DNA of 14,779 nt from Longimicrobiales bacterium (GTDB taxonomy: Bacteria > Gemmatimonadota > Gemmatimonadetes > Longimicrobiales > RSA9). The stretch is from NCBI GenBank assembly GCA_039912685.1, contig JBDSPG010000057.1:1-14779 (forward strand), written 5' to 3'. A model generated the notes under the pieces. That model was given only the letters and a program-made list of their open reading frames with translations, was not told the DNA's origin and did no database searches. A program made the position numbers and the translations under genes. The first letter of the stretch is position 1. Every line of letters starts with the position of its first letter. Shown here one piece after another: positions 1 through 14,753 of this stretch.

Positions 1-418
1 GATTCACCTGCAGTGTAACTTCCTCACGCAGCTCGGCGATCGCCGATTCGCGGCTCTGCGCCATTAGCACGAACATTGACAGAAAGATCGCCTCCAGCGA
101 GACGATCATGGTCAGCAGGCCGAACGGGAACGGATCGAAGGGGCGCAGTCCGAACGCGCGAGTATTCCAGGCGATCCATACCGCAAACCACAGAACATGA
201 AGATTGAAGAAAGTGGCGGAGCTGGCAGCCCTCGTGAGCGAGTCTGCGAGCCGCTCCATGATCGTGCGGTCCGCAGCATGGCCGGCTTTGAGTGCGCGCA
301 TCGCGCGCGATACGCTGCGCGCACCGCGTCGGTCGACACCGGTATCCGCCTGGTCGGCGAGTTGCGGCGTCGCGTCCTGGAGCTGTACGGGTTCCGGGTT
401 TTCGTGCATGGGACGCAT
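1..418 (-). CDS. DUF1003 (PF06210-like) small membrane protein, 3' end cut off by the window edge
   Basis: Absent from the ORF track because it runs off the window. Hand translation of the minus strand from the ATG at 418-416 gives MRPMHENPEPVQLQDATPQLADQADTGVDRRGARSVSRAMRALKAGHAADRTIMERLADSLTRAASSATFFNLHVLWFAVWIAWNTRAFGLRPFDPFPFGLLTMIVSLEAIFLSMFVLMAQSRESAIAELREEVTLQVN, still open at position 1. There is an in-frame TAA at 461-463 just upstream. The 'WFAVWIAWNT...FDPFPFGLLTMIVSLEAIFLSMFVLMAQSRE' core matches the two-helix DUF1003 signature (fDPyPF..LLn..lS..aa...l.lMsQNRq). The listed 24..515(-) ORF is in a different frame and is Arg/Pro-rich GC-frame junk. Confidence 0.65.
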   Translation of the reverse strand, partial: MRPMHENPEPVQLQDATPQLADQADTGVDRRGARSVSRAMRALKAGHAADRTIMERLADSLTRAASSATFFNLHVLWFAVWIAWNTRAFGLRPFDPFPFGLLTMIVSLEAIFLSMFVLMAQSRESAIAELREEVTLQVN

Positions 419-478
419 GATGGCGATTATCGTGCCCCGCAGCCAGCGCGATGGGTCGCTTTACGAGCCACGGGATCT

Positions 479-1213
479 CTACCAGCGCCGGACCAAACCC
501 ACGCCGACATACCATTCGCCCGCGCCATTAAGCCGATGCCCCACTCGCGCGTCCAGCTGCAGGTCTCCTGTGATGCTGCGCGTCATCCCGACATCCGTGA
601 AAACCGCATGGTCCCGAAACGGGCCGTTGAGCACGCGAGTGCCGTATGCCTCGGCGAAGACTCCCGTGCGCCTCCCGATCTCAGCACCCAGGACAATGCT
701 GCCACTCGCTTCGCCCGACCGGCCGGATGGTCCGGGCTGTGAAGCGAATGATGCATTCGCACCCAGCGCGACGCTCTCACTCAATGGACGCTCCAGGGAC
801 AACAGGACTTCAGGTACCACGCCATCCGCCGTTTCCGTTGACGCACCCGTCGGAAATATGGCACCCACGATGACCGCGGCCCGCGGTGAAAGCGAAAATT
901 TTGCGCCGATGCCAGCGTCCTCGATGCCGTTCGCCTCGACACCATTCCCACGCGTCAGCACGTAGGAGTTCGCCAACACGCGCAGTTCGAACCTGCGCGT
1001 CAGACCGATACGCAGCAGCAGCTCACCAATCGCGTGGCGACTGATGCCGTCGGTGCGCGTCAGTGTGTATCCGCTCTCCAGCTGCGGACGCGACACCACG
1101 ACCACGCTCTCGGTGAAGTCCGGACGATCACTCGTCAGCTCCTGTGATGATGCGGCTGCCGGTAGCATGAGAACCACGGCAAACAGGAACGGTACCGTCG
1201 GACGTCGCATCAT
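479..1213 (-). CDS. Outer-membrane beta-barrel protein, PF13557 (MetA-pathway/'transporter' family)-like, with signal peptide
   Basis: 244 aa. N-terminal signal peptide MMRRPTVPFLFAVVLMLPAAASSQE. Mature N-terminus TSDRPDFTESVVVVSRPQLESGYTLTRTDG...LLLRIGLTRRFELRV resembles the family consensus (tDRPgft.s..tv..G.lQlEsGyt...lRiGltd.lElrl). Remainder is rich in alternating beta-strand patterns and ends in aromatic W. Its ATG (1213) overlaps the ZIP gene stop as ATGA. Confidence 0.65.
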   Translation of the reverse strand: MMRRPTVPFLFAVVLMLPAAASSQELTSDRPDFTESVVVVSRPQLESGYTLTRTDGISRHAIGELLLRIGLTRRFELRVLANSYVLTRGNGVEANGIEDAGIGAKFSLSPRAAVIVGAIFPTGASTETADGVVPEVLLSLERPLSESVALGANASFASQPGPSGRSGEASGSIVLGAEIGRRTGVFAEAYGTRVLNGPFRDHAVFTDVGMTRSITGDLQLDARVGHRLNGAGEWYVGVGLVRRW

Positions 1214-2388
1214 GCCGCGACGAACAGGCCGGTCGCGTACATCACGAGCATGCCGAGCGCAAACCCGGCTGCATTGCGTGGACTCGTCAGACCGCGCTCA
1301 CTGCCCGCGAAGAAGCTCGCAATTGCGTAGATGACCTGCGCAATTGCACCCGCTCCGATTGCGAAGAACAACGTGGTAAGTACGGGCGAATAGCTCAACC
1401 CGCCGATCCACGCACCTGCAATAGTCGGCAACCCCGCCAGCAGGCCCAGGCCGATCAGTCGGCTCACACGCGGGCGACCACTTGCCAGCGGCGTAACGAT
1501 CGCAAGGCCTTCCGTCGTATTGTGCAGCAGGAAACCAAGCACCAGGAACGTACCAAGCGCGATCTCTCCCGTCGCATACGCACTACCGACTGCCAGACCC
1601 TCGCCGAGATTGTGCAGTCCGATTCCGATCGCGACCAGCAGCGCCAGACGGTTTGCTGCGCCTTCACCGGTTTGCGTGCGAGAACTGTCCGCACGTCCGA
1701 GTGCAAAGAGCAGCAGCGCCGTCAGCGTGCTGCCGAGCATGACAATGCCGAGCCCCTGATACGCACCGGGAACCAGCTGTGACATATCAAGCGCCTCTGC
1801 CATTGCTTCAATGCCGAGGAAAAGCAGCAGGCCGACCGTGAACGCGAGGAAGAAATCGAGGGTCTCGTGTTCTACTCGGCGAAGGAACGGCAGCCACAAC
1901 AGACCGAGCAGCACAGGAATCACGCCGACATATATGCCGAGCACCGCAAACATGCCGATCTGTTTTGCGCCCGCGCGCGGCGTCTGCACCGCCGCTTGCA
2001 CTTCACTTTCGAACGTCACGCCCGTGCTCGTGACGAGCTTCACTACGTGACGCTCGCCCGTGACCCACGGATATGGAATGGTGATGACACGCGACGACAG
2101 ACGCTCCATGCGACGATCGCCATCGAGCGTGTGCACCCATGCCGCATCATCGATCGTGATCTGCGCGATCGTCACCGGCTCCGCGCCGCCGTTCACAACC
2201 CGTAGCTTCATCACGTTCGGCTCCGGCAGCGTAATTCGCTCGATGACCAGATCTTCAACCGGGATCGCACCTGATTCAAGCATGCCGAGCGGTCCGTGAC
2301 GAAGCAGAATGACAACGAGGATCGCCAGCAGCGCGAGCGGAAACAGTGCGCGCACCCACAGCGACGTATTGCTGCTTGTCTCAGGCAT
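1210..2388 (-). CDS. ZIP-family divalent metal permease (ZupT-like 8-TM core) with an extra N-terminal TM anchor plus a ~110-aa extracytoplasmic beta-rich domain
   Basis: 392 aa. Core motifs GIGLHNLGEGLAVG and FLLHNTTEGLAIV are the ZIP TM4/TM5 metal-site signatures (HNxxEG). Residues ~12-30 form a TM helix. Residues ~31-140 (VEDLVIERITLPEPNVMKLRVVNGGAEPVTIAQITIDDAAWVHTLDGDRRMERLSSRVITIPYPWVTGERHVVKLVTSTGVTFESEV) are hydrophilic and beta-rich before the first core helix. The ATG at 2388 forms an 8-nt overlap (ATGCCTGA) with the MCO stop. Confidence 0.85.
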   Translation of the reverse strand: MPETSSNTSLWVRALFPLALLAILVVILLRHGPLGMLESGAIPVEDLVIERITLPEPNVMKLRVVNGGAEPVTIAQITIDDAAWVHTLDGDRRMERLSSRVITIPYPWVTGERHVVKLVTSTGVTFESEVQAAVQTPRAGAKQIGMFAVLGIYVGVIPVLLGLLWLPFLRRVEHETLDFFLAFTVGLLLFLGIEAMAEALDMSQLVPGAYQGLGIVMLGSTLTALLLFALGRADSSRTQTGEGAANRLALLVAIGIGLHNLGEGLAVGSAYATGEIALGTFLVLGFLLHNTTEGLAIVTPLASGRPRVSRLIGLGLLAGLPTIAGAWIGGLSYSPVLTTLFFAIGAGAIAQVIYAIASFFAGSERGLTSPRNAAGFALGMLVMYATGLFVAA

Positions 2389-3436
2389 GGACTACCGGGC
2401 GGACATTGAATGCACCCGACCAGCCGAGCTCCGCAAACTCGCTTTGATGTGCGTGGAACATGAACTGGCCCGTGTGCTTGTAACGGAACTCCACAACACC
2501 ACGCTCGCCCTGGCACAGCGCAACTGTGTCCGTCGACTCGTACTGCGTCAGGGTCGTGCCGGTCCTGTAGTACTTGAAGATGTTGCCGTGCAGATGAAAT
2601 GAATTCAACAGATCGAATTCCGTCATGTTGCCGAGATAGATGCGCACCAGCTCGCCCTGATCGATCTGGATGGGATGCTTCTGGTAATGAAATGCGACGC
2701 TGTTCACCGCGTACACTTCATTGTCATTGTCGAGGTTCGTGTCAAAGCCATTCATCATCATCACCATCTCGCGCGCTGGCTCGCGCGGCGTCGGTGGATC
2801 GATGATGAACATGCCGTACAGGCCCTTGTGGATGTGGCGCTTGAACGGCGGTACGTGACAGTGGTACAGGTGAACGCCGAACGGCTCCGCGTCGAACTCA
2901 TACACGAACGCGCTTCCGGGCTGCACGATTTCCATCGCGCCATCCATGTTCGCCGGATGAACGCCATGAAAATGCATCGTGTGCGGGTGCGTGCCGCCAT
3001 TCACGAACCGGACTCGCACGCGGTCACCCTCCGTGCAGCGGATCGTCGGACCCGGCACGCTGCCGTTGTACGTCCACGCGGGGAAATAAAGGCCGGGCGC
3101 GATCTCGATCTCGCGATTCGTCGCAACGATCTCGTACTCGCGTACCCTACGGCCGTCCGCGGATGCGGCCTCGCGGCCATATTCGAAGTGTGTCAGAAAT
3201 GCATCGGGATCGAGGCCACCGGGCTTGATGTCACCTACAACATCGAGTGCGTGCGGTGAGTGTGCGTCATGCGACGACATCAGCGGGGTCACCGTCGACT
3301 CAGGCGCAGACCCTGCAACCGCCCGCGCGATCCCCGCGGATGCCGCGGCCACGGCCGCTGTGCCCAACGCGCCCCTGCGCAGAAGAGTCCGTCGTGTAAT
3401 GGATTTGTCGTTCCGATCGGTCATAGGCCCGCCCAT
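2381..3436 (-). CDS. TAT-secreted two-domain multicopper oxidase (small laccase/NirK-like fold)
   Basis: Copper-ligand motifs in order: HPHTMHFHG (HxH), HLYHCHV...HIH...M (HCH plus T1 His/Met), FHLHG (HxH), FHAHQ (HxH). Twin-arginine signal TRRTLLRRGALGTAAVAAASAGIARA. His-rich mature N-terminus SSHDAHSPHALD. The track ORF 2381..3916 carries a 160-aa Arg-rich N-terminal extension that overlaps the regulator gene and is rejected. Start chosen at the ATG at 3436 (MGGPMTDRNDKSITRR...); an alternative ATG lies at 3424 (MTDRNDK...). Confidence 0.8.
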   Translation of the reverse strand: MGGPMTDRNDKSITRRTLLRRGALGTAAVAAASAGIARAVAGSAPESTVTPLMSSHDAHSPHALDVVGDIKPGGLDPDAFLTHFEYGREAASADGRRVREYEIVATNREIEIAPGLYFPAWTYNGSVPGPTIRCTEGDRVRVRFVNGGTHPHTMHFHGVHPANMDGAMEIVQPGSAFVYEFDAEPFGVHLYHCHVPPFKRHIHKGLYGMFIIDPPTPREPAREMVMMMNGFDTNLDNDNEVYAVNSVAFHYQKHPIQIDQGELVRIYLGNMTEFDLLNSFHLHGNIFKYYRTGTTLTQYESTDTVALCQGERGVVEFRYKHTGQFMFHAHQSEFAELGWSGAFNVRPVVHA

Positions 3437-3457
3437 GTTTATGTCCCGCCCAACTTC

Positions 3458-3486
3458 ATAATTAGGCAGGACTAAAACAATGTCAA
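3458..3486 (-). promoter_or_regulatory. Putative sigma70 promoter for the MCO-ZIP-OMP string: TTGACA(-35)-N17-AATTAT(-10)
   Basis: Minus-strand reading of 3437-3519: ...GGCCTTGACATTGTTTTAGTCCTGCCTAATTATGAAGTTGGGCGGGACATAAAC-ATG. The -35 is a perfect TTGACA (plus 3481-3486). The spacer is 17 nt. The -10 AATTAT (plus 3458-3463) matches 4/6 including A2 and T6. Predicted TSS is ~14 nt upstream of the ATG at 3436. Confidence 0.4.
3462..3475. promoter_or_regulatory. Imperfect palindrome TTAGGCAGGACTAA in the promoter spacer; candidate DtxR/MntR-family operator
   Basis: Outer arms TTAG/CTAA are exact inverted repeats and resemble TTAGG/CCTAA half-sites of DtxR/IdeR-type boxes. It sits between -35 and -10, where repressors of this family typically bind. 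It lies 45 bp downstream of the regulator gene stop. Confidence 0.3.
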
Positions 3487-3519
3487 GGCCAGACTTTCTG
3501 TAATTTACCGCAAACGGGG

Positions 3520-4188
3520 TTAGGCGAGGTCTGGTTCCGGCGGGGCGACCTGGATTTTGGCGGCGATTTCGGCGCCGACCACGCATTCCGTGCCGGCGAC
3601 ACGTAGGCGCAGCGGCCCGTTGAAGGGCGCGCGGTCGAGGATCTCGAGCTGAGCGCCCGGGATCAGTCCAAGTTCGGCAAAGTAGCGGAGCTCGGCGGGG
3701 TCGTCGTCGGGGACTTGCCTCAAGAGTACGGCGGAGCCGACGGGTATTTCGGCAAGCGACGGCAGATGTACGTCTTCGAAAACTCCTGCGGCTGTCGGAA
3801 TTGGCGCGCCATGCGGATCCGCGACAGGTTCGCCGAGTGCCTTGGCCATTCGGTCGATGAGCTCCTCTGAGGCCGAGTGCTCTAGCTGTTCGGCTTCGGC
3901 ATGTACGCGGTCCCATGGGTAGCCGAGCACATGGACGAGGAATGCTTCCAGGATCCGATGACGCCGAATGGTGCGCACGGCGGTATGCGTCCCGCGCGCG
4001 GTCAGCCTCGCGCCATAATAGCGCGTGTGTTCGACGAGGCCCTGCTCCGCCAGCCGCTTGAGCATGCCGGTTACGGAGCCCGCCGCGATGCCGAGCTGGT
4101 CAGCGATCGCTGAAGTGCTTGCCGACTCCCCCTCACGGGAGAGCTGGTAGATCGCCTTGAGGTAGTCTTCGACCGCCGGACTCGTCAT
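3520..4188 (-). CDS. DtxR/MntR-family metal-dependent transcriptional regulator with C-terminal FeoA/SH3-like domain
   Basis: 222 aa. N-terminus MTSPAVEDYLKAIYQL is nearly identical to the B. subtilis MntR N-terminus (MTTPSMEDYIEQIYML). Winged-HTH residues ~20-70. Metal-site region H77...H96-E98-E100-E103-H104. C-terminal SH3-like segment VGSAVLLRQV...LRYFAELGLIPGAQLEIL. Confidence 0.9.
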   Translation of the reverse strand: MTSPAVEDYLKAIYQLSREGESASTSAIADQLGIAAGSVTGMLKRLAEQGLVEHTRYYGARLTARGTHTAVRTIRRHRILEAFLVHVLGYPWDRVHAEAEQLEHSASEELIDRMAKALGEPVADPHGAPIPTAAGVFEDVHLPSLAEIPVGSAVLLRQVPDDDPAELRYFAELGLIPGAQLEILDRAPFNGPLRLRVAGTECVVGAEIAAKIQVAPPEPDLA

Positions 4189-4229: not shown

Positions 4230-5723
4230 TTACGGTGCGTCGAGATTCGAACCAGCGGCAGGCGCTCCGACTTTCCCGCCCAGGTTCTTCATAAACGAAT
4301 CGAGGTCCAGCCCCATCGCGCCCGCGACCTGCTCGAGTGCGCGAATGGAAGCGTTCACTTTCTGCGACGTCGCATTAGCGACGCCCTGACCGTTTCCGCT
4401 GTCGATGACAGTGAGGCGGTCGATCTGCACATCCTTCATGGCATCGACGGTGACGCCGAGCAGCGCCGGCATCTTTTCGGCGAGGAAGACCTGCAGTCCG
4501 ATATCGCCGCCCTTGGCGATCTGGGCGAACAGCAGGGCAAGTACTTCCGCCTGCGCGCGACCGCTCTCCATGATCGGGGCGGCCTCCGCCTTGGCGGCAG
4601 ACTCCGCGGCCATACGCGCCGCTTCCGCGGGTTGCACGACATCTGCCTGCAGCCTTGTGCGCTCCGTTTTCACGCGCTGCTCCTGATACGCAGTCTGCGC
4701 TTCCGACTCGGCGCGCTGTGCATTCGCGTGCGCAACCTTTTCCGCGGTTTCCGAAAGCTGCAGCAGCTCCGCCTGTCGTACACGGAGTGCATTCTTCGCT
4801 TCGGAAATTTTCACGTCAGCATTCGCCTGCGCGACTTCCGCGATCTGCTTGGACGCCGCCTGCTGTGTGCGGATCTCCGCGTCCGCCGTAGCGTTCGCGA
4901 CTTCCGCGCGCTGACGTGCCTGCGCCTGGCTCTCCTTGACGTGCGCCTCTGCTTCAGCCTGCGCGACCTGCGCCATCTTGGTCGCTTCCGCCTGCTGCTG
5001 CTTGATCTGTGCGTCGGCCATCGCAGCCGCAACTTCTGCGACGCGCTTCGCTTCGGACTGGCGCAGCCGAGTTTCCGCGATTGCGTTCGCCTTTGCGATC
5101 TCGGCATCACGCAGTGCTTCCGCAGTGGCCTTCTCACCAATCGCCTGCAGATATCCGACCTTGTCGCTTACATGCTGAATCTTGAGCACGTCGAGCTGCA
5201 GGCCGAGCTTCTTCAGGTCGTGATCGGCTTCCTCGGAGAGATGCTCTGCGAATCCGAGACGGTCTTCGTTGACCTGCTCCGGCGTCAGCTTCGACAGCAC
5301 GCCACGCAGGTTACCGGTCAACGTTTCGCGCGCGAGACGCTCGATCTCCGCCTGCGTCTTGCCGAGCAGTCTTTCGACGGCGTTGTTGAATACGGCTTCC
5401 GGTGAGGACGCGATCTTCACGTTCGCGATGGCCTGCACCGCGAGCGGGATGTTGCCTTTGGAGTACGCGTCATCAACGCTGATCTCGAGCGGGATCGTGC
5501 CGAGCGTTAGCCACTGCACGCGTTCCAGAATGGGTATGCGCAGGGTGCGACCGCCGGTTACGGTGCGATAACCGACGCTGCTGCCATCACCGAGCGCGCG
5601 TTTGCGACCCGTAATTGCTGCCGCCATGTTTGGCGGCACGATGATCACGAGGCGGTTTATCGTGAAAAGGATGAGCACTGCGACGGCAAGCAGTACGCCA
5701 CCGATGATCAAGCCCGTATTCAT
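4230..5723 (-). CDS. Flotillin-like SPFH/Band-7 protein (FloT/YqiK type)
   Basis: 497 aa. N-terminal TM helix, then SPFH core (PILERVQWLTLGTIPLEISVDDAYSKGNIPLAVQAIANVKI...). Long Ala/Glu/Gln coiled-coil with ~22-residue repeats. Gly/Ala-rich C-terminus. Start ATG 5723 lies 2 nt after the NfeD gene stop. Confidence 0.9.
   Translation of the reverse strand: MNTGLIIGGVLLAVAVLILFTINRLVIIVPPNMAAAITGRKRALGDGSSVGYRTVTGGRTLRIPILERVQWLTLGTIPLEISVDDAYSKGNIPLAVQAIANVKIASSPEAVFNNAVERLLGKTQAEIERLARETLTGNLRGVLSKLTPEQVNEDRLGFAEHLSEEADHDLKKLGLQLDVLKIQHVSDKVGYLQAIGEKATAEALRDAEIAKANAIAETRLRQSEAKRVAEVAAAMADAQIKQQQAEATKMAQVAQAEAEAHVKESQAQARQRAEVANATADAEIRTQQAASKQIAEVAQANADVKISEAKNALRVRQAELLQLSETAEKVAHANAQRAESEAQTAYQEQRVKTERTRLQADVVQPAEAARMAAESAAKAEAAPIMESGRAQAEVLALLFAQIAKGGDIGLQVFLAEKMPALLGVTVDAMKDVQIDRLTVIDSGNGQGVANATSQKVNASIRALEQVAGAMGLDLDSFMKNLGGKVGAPAAGSNLDAP
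4689..5126 (-). repeat. Imperfect tandem nucleotide periodicity encoding the flotillin EA-rich coiled-coil (22-aa units such as AEVAxAxADAxI...)
   Basis: Protein residues ~200-345 show repeating units RVAEVAAAMADAQIKQQQAEATKM / AQVAQAEAEAHVKESQAQARQR / AEVANATADAEIRTQQAASKQI / AEVAQANADVKISEAKNALRVRQ. The DNA shows recurring gcgcctgcgc / ttccgcg / cttcgc blocks. This also generates long spurious ORFs in other frames. Confidence 0.4.
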
Positions 5724-5725
5724 CT

Positions 5726-6301
5726 TTACTCCGTTTCAGAAGGAAGGAGCGCATCCGCGCGCTCGAACTCGTGGAGAGGCGATACGAACGCAGTGCCTCC
5801 CCTTATCTCTACGACGACAACCTGCTTCCAGGTTTCGGGCTGCAGCGCATTCTTGTCATAGCATTCCGCCATCAGCTCGATTTCGCGACCGCTTCGCTCG
5901 ACGGCAATTTTCCCTCTGCCGCCGCGCAGCGGCAGCACGACGTGGCCGAGCAGACCTTCGAACGAAGCATCCGTTTCCATTGCACCGGAGTTCGTCTGTT
6001 TCAGGTAGCGGAACATCGCGACGCTTGTGAAGGCCGACACAATGCCGGTGAAGAGCGCGCCGAAAAACGCGAGCAGCGGCGCCTTCCCGCCCGACGTGAA
6101 GTGCACCAGCACACCGACCGCGCCGAACGCGAACAGGAAGTACGTCGCTGCGCGCAGTGAAAAGAGCTGCCAGTGCGAATCGGCGCCGTCGTGTTCGATG
6201 TGGATGTGATCGGCCCCCTCGGAGCCGAAGAAATCGCCGGCGAGGGAGAAGAGTGCGAGGCCGCCCCCGAGAACGAGAGCGAACCAGAACAGCGTCAGCA
6301 T
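5726..6301 (-). CDS. NfeD/YqiJ-like membrane protein (flotillin-associated)
   Basis: Two or three N-terminal TM helices (MLTLFWFALVLGGGLALFSLAG...; LFSLRAATYFLFAFGAVGVLV; LLAFFGALFTGIVSAFTSVAMF). C-terminal soluble beta-rich domain (GLLGHVVLPLRGGRGKIAVERSGREIELMAECYDK...VVVVEIRGGTAFVSPL) typical of the NfeD OB-fold. Sits immediately upstream of the flotillin, the canonical gene pair. The track start (GTG at 6406) is replaced by the ATG at 6301, which has a strong SD (GGAGGATCCC-ATG) and leaves a sensible 118-bp divergent intergenic region to the MATE gene. Confidence 0.75.
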   Translation of the reverse strand: MLTLFWFALVLGGGLALFSLAGDFFGSEGADHIHIEHDGADSHWQLFSLRAATYFLFAFGAVGVLVHFTSGGKAPLLAFFGALFTGIVSAFTSVAMFRYLKQTNSGAMETDASFEGLLGHVVLPLRGGRGKIAVERSGREIELMAECYDKNALQPETWKQVVVVEIRGGTAFVSPLHEFERADALLPSETE

Positions 6302-6419
6302 GGGATCCTCCGAAGTGCCGACGGCGCGATATCGTGCCGGAGCGGCGGGTGTCCTACCAAGATAATAGCGGCCGGACGGGACGCCATGAAAATCGGAGCG
6401 GTACACGGTATCTTATCCC

Positions 6420-7817: not shown

Positions 7818-7887
7818 GAAACAGTCCGTTGGAAAACTTCTCCGTACTCCGTGCCTTCGTGTGAGAAATTCCGTCCGAAACCCGCTC

Positions 7888-7905
7888 CCCTACCCCTCCG
7901 TAGGG
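7888..7905. other. Perfect 6-bp stem / 6-nt loop hairpin CCCTAC-CCCTCC-GTAGGG in the MATE-ADOP intergenic region
   Basis: Seen directly in the sequence. No T-tract follows. May be a transcript-stabilising or attenuating structure. Confidence 0.2.
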
Positions 7906-7946
7906 CTCCCCGGCAGTCCAATCCCACCGTCCATGTGAGCGGCCCG

Positions 7947-10364
7947 ATGAAAGCATTCCTCAACGACCTCCGCTTCGGAGCCCGCATGCTGCGCAAGCAG
8001 CCGGGGTCCTCGGCCATCGCGATCATCGCACTCGCACTGGGAATCGGACTCACATCCCTGATGTTCAGCATTGTCTATGGTGCGATGCTGCGCGGGCTGC
8101 CCTTCGAGGAGTCCGAGCGGATCCTCACGCTGTCGACGTCGATTCCATCCGAGAACCGTCTGCAGGTCGAGCCATCGGTGCATGACTTCACGGAGTGGCG
8201 CGCAGAGCAGAAGTCGTTCGAGGACCTGTCAGCGAGCAACTCGACGGCCATCAACCTCTCCGATGGCGCCAATCCTGAGCGATATGAAGGCGCGTTCGTC
8301 ACGCCAGAGATGTTCCCGTTGCTGCGCGTGCAACCGGTTCTCGGCCGGTCGCTGCAGACGGCTGACAACGTCCCAGGCGCACCCGACGTGATGCTCATCG
8401 GATTCAGCATCTGGCAGAATCGCTTTGGTGGCGATCCGTCCGTAATCGGCCGAGTGGAACGCGCGAATGGCAAGCCGACCACGATCATTGGCGTGATGCC
8501 TGACCGTTTCGCATTTCCCGAGAGCGAGCAGATCTGGCTGCCGCTGCGTCAGGACCCGGCGCGCGTGAAGCGCGGTGAGGGCCAGCGCGTGGATGTCATC
8601 GGCCGGTTGCGTCATGGCGTTTCAATCGATGCGGCACGCGCGGAGTTCAGCGCCATCGCGCAGCGGATCGCCACTGCGCATCCCGAAACGAACAAGGGCG
8701 CCGGCGTCACGATCACACCGTATATCGAGAGCTCGTTCGGCCCCGAACCGATCGCAATGCTCTACACCATGCTGGGCGCCGTATTTCTCGTCCTGCTCAT
8801 TGCATGCACCAATGTCGCGAACCTGCTGATCAGCCGCGCCGCTGCACGCTCGAAGGAGGTCGGTGTACGGACTGCTCTGGGAGCGTCACGATATCGCATC
8901 GTCCGCCAGTTCATGGCCGAGTCCCTCATCATTTCATTCGCAGGCGCGCTTCTCGGCCTCGGCATCGCCTTCATCGGCACACGAATGTTCTCGAATGCGA
9001 TCGTCGACACCAACCCGCCGTTCTGGATCGACGTGAAGGTGGATGGCGGGGTTCTTTTATTCGTGTTCGCCATCACACTGCTGTCGACTATGCTCGCCGG
9101 CGCTTTCCCTGCGTTCAGCGCTGCCGGCACGAAAGTGAGTGACGTGTTGAAGGACGAGGCGCGCGGCAGCTCGAGTCTGAAACTCGGCAGGCTCAGCCGC
9201 GTTCTGGTGGTTTTTGAGATCGCACTTTCGGCCGGTCTTCTGGTTGGTGCCGGTCTTATCATCAAGAGCATCACGAAGCTGCGCACAGTCGACTACGGCT
9301 TCGAGACGCGCAGCGTTTTCACAGGGCACGTATCGCTGACCGATGTCGATTATCCTGACGAAGCGACGCGTGTCCGTTTCTACAATGAGCTGGTTGAGAA
9401 AGTGCGTGCCCTGCCGGGTGTTCAGTCCGCTGCGATTGCGAGCTCACTTCCCGGTCGCGGGTCAGGCCGGACAACCTTTGCTGTCGAAGGCGTCACCTAT
9501 CCCGATGAGCGCTACCCGTTCGCTGGCTCGCCCCAGGTGTCGCCCGATTACTTCAGCACGCTGAAGATCGGCATTGTGAGTGGTCGCGCATTCACAGCGC
9601 AGGACGATGCCGCATCGTTACCGGTCGCAATCGTGACCCAGTCCCTGGCGCGTGCTCAGTTCGGAACAGCCAGCCCGATCGGCCGGCGGGTACGGCTTAG
9701 CCCTGACCGCGACCGTGACGAGCCGTTCCGCACGATTGTCGGCGTCGTGCCCGATTCGTACATCAATGGTCTGACCGAAAAGGAACAGTCCGGCATCTTC
9801 ATTCCCTTTGCGCAGTCGCCCGCCTACGGCGCTGGGATTCTCGCGCGCGTGGATGGCAATCCGCTGGACCTGACGAAGGCCGTTCGCGGCGTCGTAACGG
9901 CCATGGATCCGGATCAACCGATGTTCAGCACAACGACACTGCAGCACTCGATCGACGAGCACAACTGGTTTTACCTGGTGTTCGGTTCCCTCTTCATGTC
10001 GTTCGGCCTGGCCGCGTTATTCCTGGCTTCTGTCGGATTGTACGGTGTAATGGCGACGTCCGTGAATCACCGGACACGCGAGATGGGCGTGCGCATGGCA
10101 CTCGGCGCCAATCGGGGAGATGTGCTTCGCCTGGTGATGAACGAGGGGCTGATTCAGCTCGGGGTCGGCCTGGTGCTCGGACTTGTCTTCGCCCTGGGTG
10201 TGTCGAGACTGCTCAGCATGCTGCTCTTCCAGGTGGACCCGCGCGATCCTGCAACCTTTGTCGCAATCGGTACACTCCTCGTGCTGACGGCGATCGTGGC
10301 TACGTTCGTACCGGCACTACGCGCGACACGTGTGCAACCTGTGCAGGCGATGAGGGATGATTGA
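7947..10364 (+). CDS. ADOP-family (acidobacterial duplicated orphan permease) MacB/FtsX-type ABC permease with two FtsX domains
   Basis: N-terminus MKAFLNDLRFGARMLRKQPGSSAIAIIALALGIGLTSLMFSIVYG is the hallmark ADOP leader (..LRYA.RMLRKsPGFt..A.LtLALGIGANTA.FS). A MacB-type periplasmic domain follows. First FtsX module ~res 290-420 (LVLLIACTNVANLLISRAAARSKEVGVRTALGASR). Second periplasmic domain, then second FtsX module at the C-terminus (LFLASVGLYGVMATSVNHRTREMGVRMALGANR). The track start (GTG 7851) adds 32 non-conserved residues, so the ATG at 7947 is preferred. No ATPase or membrane-fusion gene is adjacent. Confidence 0.85.
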   Translation: MKAFLNDLRFGARMLRKQPGSSAIAIIALALGIGLTSLMFSIVYGAMLRGLPFEESERILTLSTSIPSENRLQVEPSVHDFTEWRAEQKSFEDLSASNSTAINLSDGANPERYEGAFVTPEMFPLLRVQPVLGRSLQTADNVPGAPDVMLIGFSIWQNRFGGDPSVIGRVERANGKPTTIIGVMPDRFAFPESEQIWLPLRQDPARVKRGEGQRVDVIGRLRHGVSIDAARAEFSAIAQRIATAHPETNKGAGVTITPYIESSFGPEPIAMLYTMLGAVFLVLLIACTNVANLLISRAAARSKEVGVRTALGASRYRIVRQFMAESLIISFAGALLGLGIAFIGTRMFSNAIVDTNPPFWIDVKVDGGVLLFVFAITLLSTMLAGAFPAFSAAGTKVSDVLKDEARGSSSLKLGRLSRVLVVFEIALSAGLLVGAGLIIKSITKLRTVDYGFETRSVFTGHVSLTDVDYPDEATRVRFYNELVEKVRALPGVQSAAIASSLPGRGSGRTTFAVEGVTYPDERYPFAGSPQVSPDYFSTLKIGIVSGRAFTAQDDAASLPVAIVTQSLARAQFGTASPIGRRVRLSPDRDRDEPFRTIVGVVPDSYINGLTEKEQSGIFIPFAQSPAYGAGILARVDGNPLDLTKAVRGVVTAMDPDQPMFSTTTLQHSIDEHNWFYLVFGSLFMSFGLAALFLASVGLYGVMATSVNHRTREMGVRMALGANRGDVLRLVMNEGLIQLGVGLVLGLVFALGVSRLLSMLLFQVDPRDPATFVAIGTLLVLTAIVATFVPALRATRVQPVQAMRDD

Positions 10365-10376
10365 GCCCTCGACCGC

Positions 10377-11504
10377 TCAACGACGAAGCACGCGCAGTGT
10401 CGCACTGTCCGACAGTACGGACCAGTCGATCGCCTGATACGTTACGGTGTTGTCACGCCGCACATTGAAGAACAGCGCGGCATGCACGGCCGGATACTTC
10501 GTCCGCATGCTGTCGAGTGCCGCCGCGTACCAACCCGCGCGGTCCCCGCCGACCGACACACTGCCCAGCTCCGCGATCATGATAGGCTTGTTCAAACCCG
10601 ATAGCGATGCGTAGTGTTTGCCGAAGATCTCGTCGAATGTCCACCATCGCGACCAGTTCGCGACAGTGCCGTAATTGAGAGCACCGGTCGAGACCCAGTC
10701 GACATATTGGTCACCTGGCCAGTAAACCTCCCAGCCGGCATAGGCGACATGGGGTGACCACACCCAGATTACGTTCGTCGCACCCGCAGCGCGAAAGCGA
10801 TCGACGACATGGCGCCATGCGGCGATGAAATCCTGCGGCTGGTTGTTCTGCGGGCCCCACGGATACCGATAAGGATCGTTCATCTCGTGTGCGAGGCGCA
10901 GCATGATCAGGTGTTTGCTAGCCTTCGAATCACGCGCCCACTGGTCCAGGTAGAAGTCGTACCTGCCTGCAGCAATCGATGCGAGACCGCCGCGATCGCG
11001 GTCGGCACGAAGCGGAAGGTCGGGATGCTTGCTGTTCTCGAAGTCCGTGAGCCACGGTTCCCAGGTGATCACGGGAATCGAGCCGATTGCATGGATGGCA
11101 TCGACAATACGATCGGGGAACGCCTGCTCGGGTTTGTCGCCCCACGCCGCATATGTCTGGATCAACGCGAGCGGCTTGCCAATCGCTCGCTCCAGGGCCA
11201 GCACACCGTCGAGTGTTGCGGGAGTGCCGTCATCATAGACGCCGAACAGGAACGTGTCGGGATGCACGAGCACTTCGCGATCATCCCGATAACCCTCGAG
11301 CCATTTCATTTGTTCGATGCGACCCGGGCCGCGCAGCTTCATGGCTGCACGGTTCTCCGTCCGGCTCACCAGGTTCGCGACTGTGTGCATCACACGCGCG
11401 AACGGCCCTTCCGTTGCCGATCCTGCAAAAAGCAGTACCAGCACGAGGCCTACGCTCACAAGAGCGGAGATCGCGGTGAGTGCTACACGCTGATGACGTC
11501 GCAT
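10377..11504 (-). CDS. Membrane-anchored glycoside hydrolase, GH26-like (clan GH-A TIM barrel)
   Basis: 375 aa. N-terminal TM anchor ALTAISALVSVGLVLVLLFAG. Acid/base region IMLRLAHEMNDPYRYPWG fits the GH26 signature (lRfgHEmN..w.WwG). A candidate nucleophile sits ~105 residues later in PIMIAELGSVS (GH-A beta7 position). The ATG at 11504 overlaps the GT2 3' end by 22 nt. Confidence 0.65.
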   Translation of the reverse strand: MRRHQRVALTAISALVSVGLVLVLLFAGSATEGPFARVMHTVANLVSRTENRAAMKLRGPGRIEQMKWLEGYRDDREVLVHPDTFLFGVYDDGTPATLDGVLALERAIGKPLALIQTYAAWGDKPEQAFPDRIVDAIHAIGSIPVITWEPWLTDFENSKHPDLPLRADRDRGGLASIAAGRYDFYLDQWARDSKASKHLIMLRLAHEMNDPYRYPWGPQNNQPQDFIAAWRHVVDRFRAAGATNVIWVWSPHVAYAGWEVYWPGDQYVDWVSTGALNYGTVANWSRWWTFDEIFGKHYASLSGLNKPIMIAELGSVSVGGDRAGWYAAALDSMRTKYPAVHAALFFNVRRDNTVTYQAIDWSVLSDSATLRVLRR

Positions 11505-13090
11505 TCAATCAATTCCAGGTCGATGTCATCCCAGGCCGCGCCAGCCCCGGGCGTCCTTGCCTGCCACGCCGCGTATACACCACCCACGCTCAGCATCGCG
11601 GCGAGGGTGGCAAAACCGATCATGCCCCATACGGCCTGACTTGTCAGCACCAGCGTACCGGCAGATTCGAGCAGCAGCCTGTTGTATATCGTCCACCCAA
11701 CTGTCACAGTGTACAGCACCAGCAAAACGAGCAGTGGCCATGCGAGTCGGAAGAAGCGACCACGAACGGCTTCCTTCGCAGTCGGAATATATGGGATCTC
11801 TGCGCGTGCGATCGCGAGAACGGTACCGGCCAGAAATATTGGCCAGCACGCAACCTTCAGCATCATGCCACGCAGATGAAGTCCGCGCTCGTGCCGCACG
11901 TCACACATCCACCGCTGCGAGAACAGGTAGATCACGACCGCTACAATGGCAACCGGTCCGCCCATCACGATGAACTCGTCGAACCGCATGGCGGCCGGCT
12001 GCACGCCTGTCCACAGGTAGACGTAGGGCAGCGCGAGATACATCGGGGCGGTGACCCCGAATAGGTAATACGTTCCGATCGCTGCGTAGGAGAGCCGCTG
12101 CCACCACGACAGTGTTCCCGCCCTGCTGGGCAGCTCTGCAAACATCACTTCGTACACGCCGCGCGCCCACTTCAGCTGCTGCTTGTAGAATGACCCGAGA
12201 TCTTCAGGCACCAGGCCGCGGCTCAGTACTTCGGGGACATAGACCGACCGCCATTTCGATGCGTGCAAACGGATCGATGTGACGAGGTCCTCGGCGAGGC
12301 CGATGCCGTGACCACCGATGGTCTGGAGCGCATCACGGCGGAACGTGCAGTTCGCACCGATCGCAACGGCCGCACCGTGTCCGTGCAGACCAAGCTGTGT
12401 CGGGCCGTAGAACGAATACGTCTGCTCCGCAGCGCCTCTCGCTACGAATGAGCGAGACTGGTTGTAGTATGCTTGCGCAACCTGCACGAAACCGATGTCG
12501 TCGTCATGAAAATGGCCGAGCACACGATCGAGGAAGTTAGGGAACGGGATGTGGTCGGGATCGAGCACGAGGATGAACCGTTCCGTTGTGCGTTGCAGCG
12601 CTGCATTGATCTTGCCTGCCTTCGCACCCGGTATTCCGATGAGCTCGAGCCACACCGCGCCATGCCGTTCGGCGGCCTCGCGCATGCGCGGATCACAAGT
12701 GTCATCGAGCAGGTACGTCGTGTGAGGATAACGAATGTGTGCGCACGCCGCGAGCGTCTTCTCGAACATTGCGAGCGGTTCGCCGGGTGAACTCGTCGTG
12801 AAAATCGCGACACTCATTCCGGCCGGCGCCGGGCGGTGCGCATCCACGCGAATGCGCGCGATGTTGATCCAACCCAGCACAATGCGTGTGATGCCATACC
12901 ACACGGCCAGAGACAGCACGACGAATAAGGGGATACTTGCGACGTTGCTCGCGCGGAACCACCAGTCTCCAAACCGGATAAGCAGCAGGATGCCTGCGCC
13001 GATCAGCGCATGGAGAATGACACGATCGGATCGCGAGACGTCAGCAGCGCGACGCCACCGCATGAGGTCGCGCGTCAGCGCGCGAGCCAC
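11483..13090 (-). CDS. Processive family-2 glycosyltransferase (cellulose-synthase/PgaC/HAS-like exopolysaccharide synthase)
   Basis: 535 aa. Two N-terminal TM helices. GT-A domain has LLDD (UDP-binding D), VLDPDH (DxD), GLAEDL (TED-like) and QQLKW in place of the canonical QxxRW. Four or five C-terminal TM helices. No PilZ domain. The track start is a GTG at 13090, overlapping the upstream gene by 16 nt. An alternative ATG at 13063 (MRWRR...) would leave an 11-nt gap. Confidence 0.9.
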   Translation of the reverse strand: MARALTRDLMRWRRAADVSRSDRVILHALIGAGILLLIRFGDWWFRASNVASIPLFVVLSLAVWYGITRIVLGWINIARIRVDAHRPAPAGMSVAIFTTSSPGEPLAMFEKTLAACAHIRYPHTTYLLDDTCDPRMREAAERHGAVWLELIGIPGAKAGKINAALQRTTERFILVLDPDHIPFPNFLDRVLGHFHDDDIGFVQVAQAYYNQSRSFVARGAAEQTYSFYGPTQLGLHGHGAAVAIGANCTFRRDALQTIGGHGIGLAEDLVTSIRLHASKWRSVYVPEVLSRGLVPEDLGSFYKQQLKWARGVYEVMFAELPSRAGTLSWWQRLSYAAIGTYYLFGVTAPMYLALPYVYLWTGVQPAAMRFDEFIVMGGPVAIVAVVIYLFSQRWMCDVRHERGLHLRGMMLKVACWPIFLAGTVLAIARAEIPYIPTAKEAVRGRFFRLAWPLLVLLVLYTVTVGWTIYNRLLLESAGTLVLTSQAVWGMIGFATLAAMLSVGGVYAAWQARTPGAGAAWDDIDLELIECDVISV

Positions 13091-14310
13091 ATCACCGCCA
13101 CGCTCGCACGAGAGACATCATAAAATGACGTGCGCTCATGCGCTGCACGCAGGTAGAGCGTCATGCGTGTGCCGCGCGGAATGCTGGCGGACGCGGCGGC
13201 CGTCCATGGCTTGAATGACCGCGTCACGAACTGCTGGGACTGACCACGTCCTTGAACCGGCGCGTCCTCGTGGGCGGAGAAGCCGTAACTGCCGTTTATC
13301 TGCAGCGCCGTCACCCGACCGAAACGGAGCTCGCCCAATGCACTGTGTGATGTCACATTCTCGGGTGTGTAGTATGGATCGAACCGTTTGCCGTTCCATC
13401 GCGAGTCGTTCGCATCCTGGTGCGCGGACGCGAGGCCGAGCCTCACGCCGGCAGTGACAGGCGCCAGTACCCAGACATACGCGGACCTGATTTCGGTGCC
13501 ATCCGGATAGCGGTCGGAGCGGACGGCGACGAGTCCGCCAAAGCCGGAAGCGCCCGAGCGATCGAGGGCGAGCTCGATGCCACGCACGGCGATCGCAGTA
13601 TCCAGGCTCGCAAGCGTGCCATGGTAGGTCGAGCGTTCGACGGAAGCGCGCACCGCGGTCTGCGATGCCACGCGGAACGCTGCGATCGCGTGTCCGGTCA
13701 GCGTGGCCCCGCCCGCGTTTCCACCTTCCACGGCTGCACCTCCGCTAAGTGTGATCGGAGTGCCTGCGGGCGACCATGACACGCCGGCACCGCCGGCCAC
13801 AACTGTCGGCGCTGTGGCCGTCGAATCGCTGGCGTAGCGATCGAGTCGTCCCGTCAGCTTCACCACAGCGGACGGCGCCGCAAAGAAGCCGGCCTCAACA
13901 TCGAGCGAACCGGTGCGAATCGGCTGGTCATCTCCAGTCGCTCCCGCGAGTGCACGCACCCATGGCGACGTCGCATGTGCTACGTCGGCATTGAATCGCA
14001 CGATGTCGGCGCGGAGGATCGCATCGTTCGGGGTGATCTCGAGGGCCCGGGCGTATGCGCTACGAGCACGCGCGTAGTCGCCGAGCTGATATAGAATCTG
14101 CGCGCGCAGCCAGTGCACGCCTGCATCCGACGGGTGCTGAGTCAGGTACTCGTCAAGTTGGCGAATCGCGGACGCATACTGCCCGGCGTCCCGCATGCGC
14201 CGCGCCGCCGCAATCTGCGTTGGTTCCTGCGCCGCTGCGCGCGTCACGGCGCTGCACATCAGCGTCAGGACGATCGCTGCGCACCCGTGCCACCCGAAAC
14301 CGCGCGTCAT
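13075..14310 (-). CDS. Secreted TPR-repeat protein fused to a C-terminal outer-membrane beta-barrel-like domain (putative polysaccharide export porin)
   Basis: 411 aa. Signal peptide MTRGFGWHGCAAIVLTLMCSAVTRAAAQE. Two or three TPR-like helices (AGQYASAIRQLDEYLTQHPSDAGVHWLRAQILYQLGDYARARSAYARALEITPND). The rest is Gly/Ala/Ser/Thr-rich with alternating hydrophobic patterns (AIAAFRVASQTAVRASVERS, IELALDRSG, AYVWVLAPVTAGVRLGLASA, MTLYLRAAHERTSFYDVSRASVAVMWLAR) typical of beta-barrel strands. The ATG at 14310 overlaps the arfB stop as ATGA. Confidence 0.6.
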   Translation of the reverse strand: MTRGFGWHGCAAIVLTLMCSAVTRAAAQEPTQIAAARRMRDAGQYASAIRQLDEYLTQHPSDAGVHWLRAQILYQLGDYARARSAYARALEITPNDAILRADIVRFNADVAHATSPWVRALAGATGDDQPIRTGSLDVEAGFFAAPSAVVKLTGRLDRYASDSTATAPTVVAGGAGVSWSPAGTPITLSGGAAVEGGNAGGATLTGHAIAAFRVASQTAVRASVERSTYHGTLASLDTAIAVRGIELALDRSGASGFGGLVAVRSDRYPDGTEIRSAYVWVLAPVTAGVRLGLASAHQDANDSRWNGKRFDPYYTPENVTSHSALGELRFGRVTALQINGSYGFSAHEDAPVQGRGQSQQFVTRSFKPWTAAASASIPRGTRMTLYLRAAHERTSFYDVSRASVAVMWLAR

Positions 14311-14753
14311 TCGTACGGTCCGATCTTGTCACGGCCGCGCTTGACTTCCGACCGCTTCTTCTTCTCGCGCAATCGGTCTTCCTTCACGCCCTTCGGCACC
14401 TTCGTCCGCTTGCGCGGCTTCGGGATGCGCAATGCCCGCTCGATCACGCCCGCGAACCGTTCCGTCACTTCTTCCTTATTCTGGAGCTGGCTTCTGCTCC
14501 CTGCTGACACCAGGCGGAGCACGCCGCTGCCGTCGATACGCGTGGCAAGCTTGACGAGGAGTCGCGTTCGCTCATCATTCGTCAGAGGAGTCGAGGTTGC
14601 GACGTTCCAAGTGAGCTCGATTCGGGTCGAAGACGTGTTCACGTGCTGACCGCCCGGACCACCTGATCGCGTCGCCCGGTATTCGATTTCGGATCGCGGG
14701 ATGCTCAATGTATCATTGATCCGAATCGCCGTGTCGTCCGTTGGCCCCTGCAT
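14307..14753 (-). CDS. arfB: ArfB (YaeJ) alternative ribosome-rescue factor / peptidyl-tRNA hydrolase
   Basis: 148 aa. Catalytic GGQ motif in SGGPGGQHVNTSSTRIELTWN. Basic C-terminal tail (RIPKPRKRTKVPKGVKEDRLREKKKRSEVKRGRDK) that probes the empty mRNA channel. Length is typical of ArfB. Confidence 0.9.
   Translation of the reverse strand: MQGPTDDTAIRINDTLSIPRSEIEYRATRSGGPGGQHVNTSSTRIELTWNVATSTPLTNDERTRLLVKLATRIDGSGVLRLVSAGSRSQLQNKEEVTERFAGVIERALRIPKPRKRTKVPKGVKEDRLREKKKRSEVKRGRDKIGPYE

Follow-up and report, generated by a model that had tools for sequence, protein, structure and literature searches.

A three-gene cluster encoding an outer-membrane porin, a glycosyltransferase family 2 (GT2) synthase and a glycoside hydrolase family 26 (GH26) enzyme, here termed the triad, probably functions as a synthase-dependent exopolysaccharide export module, by analogy with the Bcs, Pga and Pel systems. 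It is found on JBDSPG010000057.1, a complete contig of 14,779 bp from a metagenome-assembled Longimicrobiales bacterium of soil (Gemmatimonadota). This whole stretch is referred to as the window, and its G+C content is 58–66%. The list of open reading frames (ORFs) gives the porin, GT2 and GH26 genes as three consecutive minus-strand ORFs, in agreement with an earlier note, made from the letters alone, that had placed them there with overlapping starts and stops. The porin gene (13075..14310, minus strand; 411 aa) encodes a putative signal peptide, two tetratricopeptide (TPR) repeats with a capping helix and a predicted barrel of about 16 strands. The GT2 gene (11483..13090, minus strand; 535 aa) has a GTG start and specifies a BcsA-like, putatively processive synthase without a PilZ domain. 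The GTG start is plausible, since the first ATG falls within a conserved N-terminal motif (LWRWRR). The GH26 gene (10377..11504, minus strand; 375 aa) specifies a Lic26A-like hydrolase with a predicted membrane anchor. Porin and GT2 genes overlap by 16 nt and GT2 and GH26 genes by 22 nt, and the three are translationally coupled.

The co-conservation of the three genes, on which the earlier note had relied, is strict. A metagenome scan anchored on the hydrolase yields 428 confirmed stretches, from which 80 loci were returned. With family hidden Markov models, a GT2 gene is found directly upstream of the GH26 gene and on the same strand in 64/64 loci that have more than 400 nt of upstream sequence, and a barrel domain directly upstream of the GT2 gene in 34/34 loci with enough sequence. 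The same order on one strand is seen on the contigs of three hydrolase homologues, on those of three distant porin homologues, one of them only 25% identical, and in all loci found in GTDB genomes by porin motifs (8 loci, from a scan with narrow patterns drawn from a four-sequence porin alignment). Among loci, identity is highest for the synthase (63–75%), intermediate for the hydrolase (52–72%) and lowest for the porin (27–40%). The GH26 family comprises 2,347 clusters at E≤1e-3, the best 120 of which are all full length and 55–72% identical; the source names among the family matches listed are all Gemmatimonadota (Longimicrobiales, Gemmatimonadales, Gemmatimonadota). Looking up the exact sequence of the window GH26 enzyme returns no contig on record. 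Flanking genes vary between loci, and clustering of flanking ORFs reveals no conserved fourth gene, only lineage-specific ones (acyl-CoA dehydrogenase, S9 peptidase, ADOP permease). An Rfam scan of nine loci returns no family and hence no known riboswitch. Because flanks differ and neither clustering nor Rfam adds a further family, the triad is the complete conserved unit. BcsB and the GH8 enzyme BcsZ are absent from the window and from the annotated related loci.

The hydrolase is a genuine GH26 enzyme according to Pfam, PDB alignment and Foldseek, and its assignment as carbohydrate-active in the earlier note is upheld. The Pfam model PF02156 matches above threshold (33.8 bits, cutoff 20.2), over residues 189–283 only. 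In a phmmer search of the PDB, the lichenase CtLic26A is the leading match (E 5e-39), followed by the beta-1,3-xylanase Xyl4 (1e-5) and by mannanases (3.5e-5 or weaker); BLASTP gives 34% identity to Lic26A over 267 residues (147 bits). An AlphaFold2 model with a predicted local distance difference test score (pLDDT) of 89.7 has a (beta/alpha)8 barrel from residue 86 (10380..11249, minus strand). With this model, Foldseek ranks Lic26A entries first (E about 4e-25, target-normalised template modelling score, TM-score, 0.85–0.89, 33% identity), mannanases come next with E values of 1e-13 or weaker and target-normalised TM-scores of at most 0.61, and all top matches belong to GH26. The two catalytic glutamates of a GH26 enzyme, which belong on strands 4 and 7, are in place. 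Glu207, the predicted acid/base, lies in HEMN (10884–10886, minus strand) and aligns with Glu109 of Lic26A in the chain numbering of the alignment; Glu312, the predicted nucleophile, lies in IAELG (10569–10571, minus strand) and aligns with the glutamate of the Lic26A IIAEF motif. Neither residue varies among 63 homologues or across about 87 loci. Glu109 and Glu222 of Lic26A are presumably its acid/base and nucleophile, respectively.

The general GH26 mechanism has been described, and the characterised members of the family comprise beta-1,4-mannanases, beta-1,3-xylanases, mixed-linkage xylanases and one lichenase; outside the mannanases, all branches act on backbones with beta-1,3 linkages (PMC10470212). 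The window enzyme is nearest to these non-mannanase branches. If it has lichenase specificity, it would hydrolyse those beta-1,4 bonds of a glucan that lie next to beta-1,3 bonds. Its closest characterised relative, CtLic26A, is the GH26 lichenase domain of Clostridium thermocellum CelH (endoglucanase H), and the two share the catalytic glutamate pair and the WEPW, HE.N and YPGD.YVD motifs. CtLic26A is a secreted, cellulosomal, degradative enzyme and part of a multidomain protein, whereas the window enzyme is encoded in a biosynthetic operon and has a predicted membrane anchor as well as a linker of about 55 residues. The predicted N-terminal anchor spans residues 7–29 (11418..11486, minus strand; Kyte-Doolittle 2.68) and is preceded by MRRHQR; the model has a helix at residues 3–29 and a low-confidence helix at 34–58. 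The positive-inside rule would place MRRHQR in the cytosol and the catalytic domain in the periplasm. Cleavage of the N-terminus by signal peptidase, instead of retention as an anchor, is possible. Thus the operon includes a polymer-cleaving or polymer-modifying enzyme whose location would be periplasmic.

The GT2 protein matches the Pfam families Glyco_trans_2_3, Glyco_tranf_2_3 and Cellulose_synt. The TIGR03030 CelA model aligns residues 28–502 to model positions 59–562 of 714, ending ahead of the PilZ region of the model; since the score of 159.8 bits is far below the cutoff of 699.1, the protein is not a BcsA equivalog, and the NF008558 BcsA equivalog model gives only 106.3 bits against a cutoff of 992. 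PDB sequence matches are to cellulose and glucan synthases only, apart from a weak chitin synthase match (2e-3). They include Rhodobacter sphaeroides BcsA (E 6e-33 from the sequence alone, 5.7e-42 from the family profile), Escherichia coli BcsA (4.7e-35), plant CesA (about 1e-13) and barley CslF6 (2e-8). Homology to BcsA reaches into the transmembrane regions (profile positions 29–386). Among plasmid records, identity is at most 32% to anything, and BcsA-type proteins score 114–130 bits, PgaC and NodC about 60 bits. Of the BcsA/PgaC-like topology suggested earlier, the BcsA half is therefore the better description and the PgaC half the less apt one.

The predicted cytosolic GT-A catalytic domain, by alignment to BcsA, covers about residues 90–330 (12101..12823, minus strand). 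On the same strand, and placed by the same alignment, are DDT129–131 (12698–12706) and DPD177–179 (12554–12562), both invariant or nearly so in orthologues, and AED266–268 (12287–12295), which corresponds to TED of BcsA and is AED in 72/72 orthologues. QQLKW at residues 304–308 (12167–12181, minus strand) takes the QxxRW position, where R. sphaeroides BcsA has QRGRW in the alignment; QQ[LIF]KW is found in 56/56 orthologues. The arginine of QxxRW contacts the UDP diphosphate in BcsA; lysine in its place is a hallmark of this GT2 family. YIPTAK at residues 434–439 (11774..11791, minus strand) is gating-loop-like and fits FxVTxK, the gating-loop motif of BcsA; [FY]xPTxK occurs in all orthologues scanned. 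The protein has at least six hydrophobic segments (24–42, 50–68, 373–391, 409–427, 446–464 and 487–505). The chain stops about 25 residues past the last of these, too soon to accommodate a PilZ domain, and Pfam and NCBIfam scans find no PilZ, GGDEF or EAL family in any window protein. Family matches, BcsA homology and invariant motifs together point to an inner-membrane processive glycosyltransferase. A conserved arginine-rich motif, LWRWRRA..VRRRDR, occupies residues 10–24 (window about 13020–13065, minus strand) in the cytosolic tail before the first transmembrane segment, and could be a topology signal or a site for a ligand or partner.

The third protein is a beta-barrel, as the earlier note had proposed. 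Pfam recognises TPR repeats only (residues 34–100), and the C-terminal 300 residues have no curated family match. Word-index homology searches, with the single sequence or a TPR-free alignment, return only the query itself or 15 proteins. The family emerges only from an exhaustive HMMER search, which, with porin residues 110–411 as query, yields 308 representative clusters at E≤1e-3, of which 192 are at E≤1e-10. In an AlphaFold2 model built on an alignment of 90 barrel-family sequences (pLDDT 92.4, predicted TM-score 0.81), DSSP assigns 17 strand segments within residues 117–409 (13084..13962, minus strand), read as a barrel of about 16 strands. The barrel is structurally nearest to BcsC and is of the BcsC/PgaA/PelB type. 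DDQP and PYYTP motifs are conserved in the family.

Ahead of the barrel, the signal peptide is assigned to residues 1–27 (14230..14310, minus strand), with a putative cleavage site at ...TRAAA|QEP; the assignment is based on a hydrophobic segment at residues 9–27 and on a low-pLDDT N-terminal helix in the model. The predicted periplasmic TPR module covers residues 31–113 (13972..14220, minus strand), with Pfam matches to TPR_16, TPR_14 and TPR_2. Five helices in the model (31–41, 45–58, 63–75, 79–92 and 97–113) form two TPR motifs and a capping helix. The combination of an outer-membrane barrel with a periplasmic TPR domain that typifies the synthase-dependent paradigm is thus present. The TPR part is variable in the family. 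Two orthologues, in loci L001 (5345–6355, 336 aa) and L003 (5350–6405, 351 aa), pass from the signal peptide directly into the barrel. Most members carry an additional 170–190 residues at the N-terminus, and in a few this extension reaches about 300; the window porin is an intermediate, two-repeat version. As the N-terminal part ranges from none to about 300 residues, the module can do without a TPR domain. The versions with about 300 residues are proteins of 591–667 aa; the size variants noted are those of L001 and L003 and proteins P0160, P0162 and P0265.

Outside the Gemmatimonadota loci, the best matches of the synthase on Sinorhizobium plasmids lead to a Sinorhizobium meliloti pSymB locus, uxs1-uxe-apsS-apsH1-apsE-apsH2. 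It contains two NAD-dependent epimerase/dehydratase genes, a 651-aa GT2 gene, a DUF995 gene, a GH26 gene and a second DUF995-like gene. This gene content is that of the APS operon, which is named in PMC7902896 and PMC12560781; an assignment of the locus as the mixed-linkage-glucan operon bgsBA was rejected. APS is the only studied system found in this analysis to pair a PilZ-less BcsA-like GT2 with a GH26 enzyme (PMC7902896; PMC12560781), and it is activated via cyclic di-GMP (c-di-GMP) and CuxR. Thus the statement in the earlier note that no named system matches remains valid for the triad, but not for the GT2-GH26 pair. The window GT2 and ApsS share 26% identity over residues 29–427 (132 bits); ApsS has no PilZ match, has QEFQW at the QxxRW position and has FRVTPK as gating loop. 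Between ApsE and the window GH26, identity reaches 31% over 207 residues (74 bits, against 147 bits for Lic26A). Sphingobium and Paracoccus GT2s outscore ApsS on the window GT2 family profile.

A Loktanella plasmid (L098) has the same uxs-galE-GT2-GH26 core as the APS locus (L016), again with QEFQW in the GT2, and both of these alphaproteobacterial loci carry their own sugar-nucleotide genes in the operon. A TPR protein beside the Loktanella locus was considered as a porin and rejected, as it does not match the barrel profile; with this profile, no barrel-porin homologue is found in or beside the APS loci. The loss of the QxxRW arginine, shared by ApsS and the window GT2, may mark a clade of PilZ-less BcsA-like synthases. 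On Sphingobium plasmid pBSY17_1 (L097) and a Paracoccus plasmid (L099), such GT2s are paired with other hydrolases. The alphaproteobacterial plasmid sets consist of GT2, a SPOR protein, BcsS and GH16; GT2, three DUF3131 proteins, OpgC and GH16; and uxs, galE, GT2 and GH26. Apart from the APS-like one, these loci look unlike any described system. Perhaps, as their gene contents suggest, PilZ-less BcsA-like synthases generally travel with a hydrolase matched to their product. GH26 has also been reported in a Wzx/Wzy-type exopolysaccharide cluster of Actinoplanes (PMC13390465).

By analogy with Bcs, Pga and Pel, the triad would operate as follows. The GT2 synthase would polymerise sugar from a cytosolic nucleotide-sugar at the cytosolic face of the inner membrane, and the growing chain would thread through the synthase's own transmembrane channel, as with BcsA. 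Tethered by an N-terminal helix to the inner membrane, on the outer face, the GH26 enzyme would cut or trim the nascent chain in the periplasm, for release, length control or clearing of stalled product, in the manner of BcsZ, PgaB and PelA. The chain would then exit via the 16-stranded barrel of BcsC/PgaA/PelB type, whose short TPR stub would face the periplasm. No precursor genes are linked to the triad, which makes a housekeeping nucleotide-sugar the probable donor. As there is no BcsB-like partner and no recognisable c-di-GMP receptor, regulation is likely to be transcriptional or of some other kind.

The polymer can be named only tentatively, as a beta-glucan of mixed-linkage type, an identification that stands at somewhat less than even chances. 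A beta-glucan is preferred because it is indicated both by the closest characterised hydrolase and by the closest synthases of solved structure, and the lichenase similarity of the GH26 enzyme suggests mixed beta-1,3 and beta-1,4 linkages; the most likely form would be an unbranched chain carrying both. The glucan half of the earlier note's proposal, mannan or mixed-linkage glucan, is thereby favoured, mannan is much less likely, and a polymer containing pentose is also possible. It is unlikely, though conceivable, that the triad is the first three-protein secretion machine for mixed-linkage glucan that is independent of BcsB and c-di-GMP, seemingly specific to Gemmatimonadota and abundant in soil metagenomes, with GH26 as an obligatory synthase partner in the structural role of the BcsB anchor and QQxKW marking a new beta-glucan synthase clade.

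Several points weigh against an export module for mixed-linkage glucan. BcsA requires BcsB for activity, and the triad has none. The polymer is deduced from the hydrolase's nearest characterised relative only, at 34% identity, and GH26 specificity varies between enzymes. The lysine at the position of the QxxRW arginine may mean that the donor is handled differently. That the GT2 protein would form the inner-membrane translocation channel is a conclusion from homology of sequence. In addition, one report gives the product of ApsS and ApsE as an arabinose-containing polymer and not a glucan (PMC7902896).

These points leave room for other products. The triad might be a divergent cellulose system, with a PilZ-less BcsA, a shortened BcsC and a GH26 enzyme replacing the GH8 enzyme BcsZ. 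This is improbable in view of the scores of the GT2 protein against both cellulose synthase models, its identity of at most 32% to any BcsA and the lack of BcsB, PilZ and GH8; moreover, the only close characterised relative of the hydrolase is a lichenase, and such a lichenase is not known to attack pure beta-1,4-glucan. The beta-mannan or glucomannan of the earlier note draws on the dominance of mannanases in the Pfam GH26 family and on the weak mannanase matches that do exist. With E values of 3.5e-5 or weaker and TM-scores of at most 0.61, against 5e-39 and 0.88 (target-normalised) for the lichenase, and with glucan synthases as the solved relatives of the GT2 protein, such a polymer has very little probability. 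An equally slight chance is given to the absence of any secretion system, the locus serving instead the uptake and degradation of external beta-glucan, or a periplasmic glucan being retained in the envelope.

A relationship to APS would imply a polymer containing pentose (arabinose or xylose), made from UDP-xylose or UDP-arabinose supplied by genes elsewhere in the genome. The APS operon holds the best Sinorhizobium matches of the GT2 protein and also a GH26 gene, and neither synthase has a PilZ domain or the QxxRW arginine (QQLKW and QEFQW). Furthermore, beta-1,3-xylanases and mixed-linkage xylanases are among the GH26 branches closest to Lic26A (PMC10470212). However, the APS genes for UDP-xylose synthase and epimerase and its two DUF995 genes have no counterparts in the window or the annotated related loci; the clustered loci show no conserved extra family, no uxs/uxe-type genes occur in the annotated triad loci, and the APS loci are without the barrel porin. 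The window GH26 is twice as similar to Lic26A as to ApsE, in bits, and the GT2 protein is no closer to ApsS than to other BcsA-like enzymes. A pentose-containing product is therefore rated as having a low probability, and a mixed-linkage beta-glucan stays the preferred, if tentative, assignment.

The immediate surroundings of the triad are shared by few loci. Upstream is arfB (14307..14753, minus strand), encoding a ribosome-rescue peptidyl-tRNA hydrolase (NF006718 ArfB, 133.9 bits, cutoff 100). Its stop codon overlaps the start codon of the porin gene in ATGA at 14307–14310, which suggests translational coupling of the rescue factor to the polysaccharide operon. The arfB-porin arrangement recurs in a related Longimicrobiales metagenome-assembled genome (L005/L006; 4635–5081 in L005) and in none of the other loci; arfB is thus a neighbour outside the conserved module. 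The contig ends 26 nt upstream of arfB, and so the operon promoter is not visible; a promoter and terminator scan finds no terminator, and its promoter-like sites lie within genes. On the other side, a duplicated MacB/FtsX permease of the ADOP family (7851–10364, plus strand; 848 bits on TIGR03434) is convergent to the GH26 gene, with 12 nt between the two stop codons. The permease adjoins the triad also in L005 (9174–11591), and not in the more distant loci examined.

Farther away in the window, a flotillin-like SPFH/Band_7 protein (497 aa, FloT-like) is encoded at 4230–6406 (minus strand), preceded by a 226-aa protein without a family match whose ORF occupies the position usual for an NfeD-type partner. 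A metal-related gene run at 24–3916 (minus strand) encodes a 511-aa multicopper oxidase, the first 245 or so residues of which match nothing, a ZIP-family transporter (392 aa, weak matches), an outer-membrane protein of MetA-pathway type (244 aa) and a 163-aa ORF without assignment.

Few Gemmatimonadota have been cultured, although the phylum ranks among the most abundant in soil, and next to nothing has been described of their surface polymers. The triad occurs in hundreds of soil and sediment metagenome contigs, and it is therefore a plausible major route to the extracellular matrix of the phylum, with possible relevance to soil aggregation and desiccation tolerance. It is a natural minimal version of Bcs, Pga and Pel that does without BcsB and PilZ and, in some members, without the TPR domain, and might therefore reveal what polymerisation, passage through the periplasm and export truly require. 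Its small size, three genes only, makes it easy to express in another host, and a mixed-linkage glucan, if confirmed as product, would be of biotechnological interest. The triad is mechanistically unsurprising, but it is clean, minimal, phylum-wide and experimentally tractable.

Among known systems, Bcs offers the closest comparison. The window GT2 is homologous to BcsA and has its D, DxD, ED, Q..W and gating-loop motifs; both systems have an outer-membrane protein composed of TPR repeats and a 16-stranded barrel, and both operons include an endo-acting glycoside hydrolase, periplasmic in Bcs and predicted to be so in the triad. The differences are the absence of BcsB from the triad and of PilZ from its synthase, a long TPR array in BcsC compared with two repeats in the window porin and none in some orthologues, a soluble GH8 enzyme in Bcs compared with a putatively membrane-anchored GH26 enzyme, and QQxKW and AED in place of QxxRW and TED. 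The earlier description of the triad as Bcs, Pga or Pel in minimal form is borne out, including the absence of PilZ and BcsB from family scans. Its GT2 protein is remote from PgaC, and the triad has neither a deacetylase nor a PgaD or PelD c-di-GMP receptor; the Pel synthase, moreover, belongs to GT4. The post-translational c-di-GMP receptor typical of such systems (PilZ on BcsA or Alg44, the PgaD interface, PelD) has no counterpart in the triad.

Bacterial mixed-linkage beta-glucan is known to be made by BcsA-like GT2 enzymes, namely BgsA/BgsB of S. meliloti and RiGT2 of Romboutsia ilealis (PMC5567048; PMC10374906; PMC13438883). Bgs, a two-gene operon (bgsBA), needs TolC and not a BcsC-type porin, and BgsA binds c-di-GMP (PMC13438883; PMC5567048; PMC10374906). 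Compared with Bgs as published, the triad has no bgsB gene. BgsB belongs to the membrane-fusion proteins. The RiGT2 enzyme carries a PilZ domain, and its host is Gram-positive. From the published descriptions and to our knowledge, neither the Bgs nor the RiGT2 system has a dedicated GH26 enzyme. Full-text literature searches combining GH26 with BcsA, or Gemmatimonadota with cellulose synthase or synthase-dependent exopolysaccharide, return no description of the triad. The parts are thus familiar and the porin-GT2-GH26 combination is previously undescribed; the triad appears to work like Bcs, Pga and Pel while belonging to none of them.

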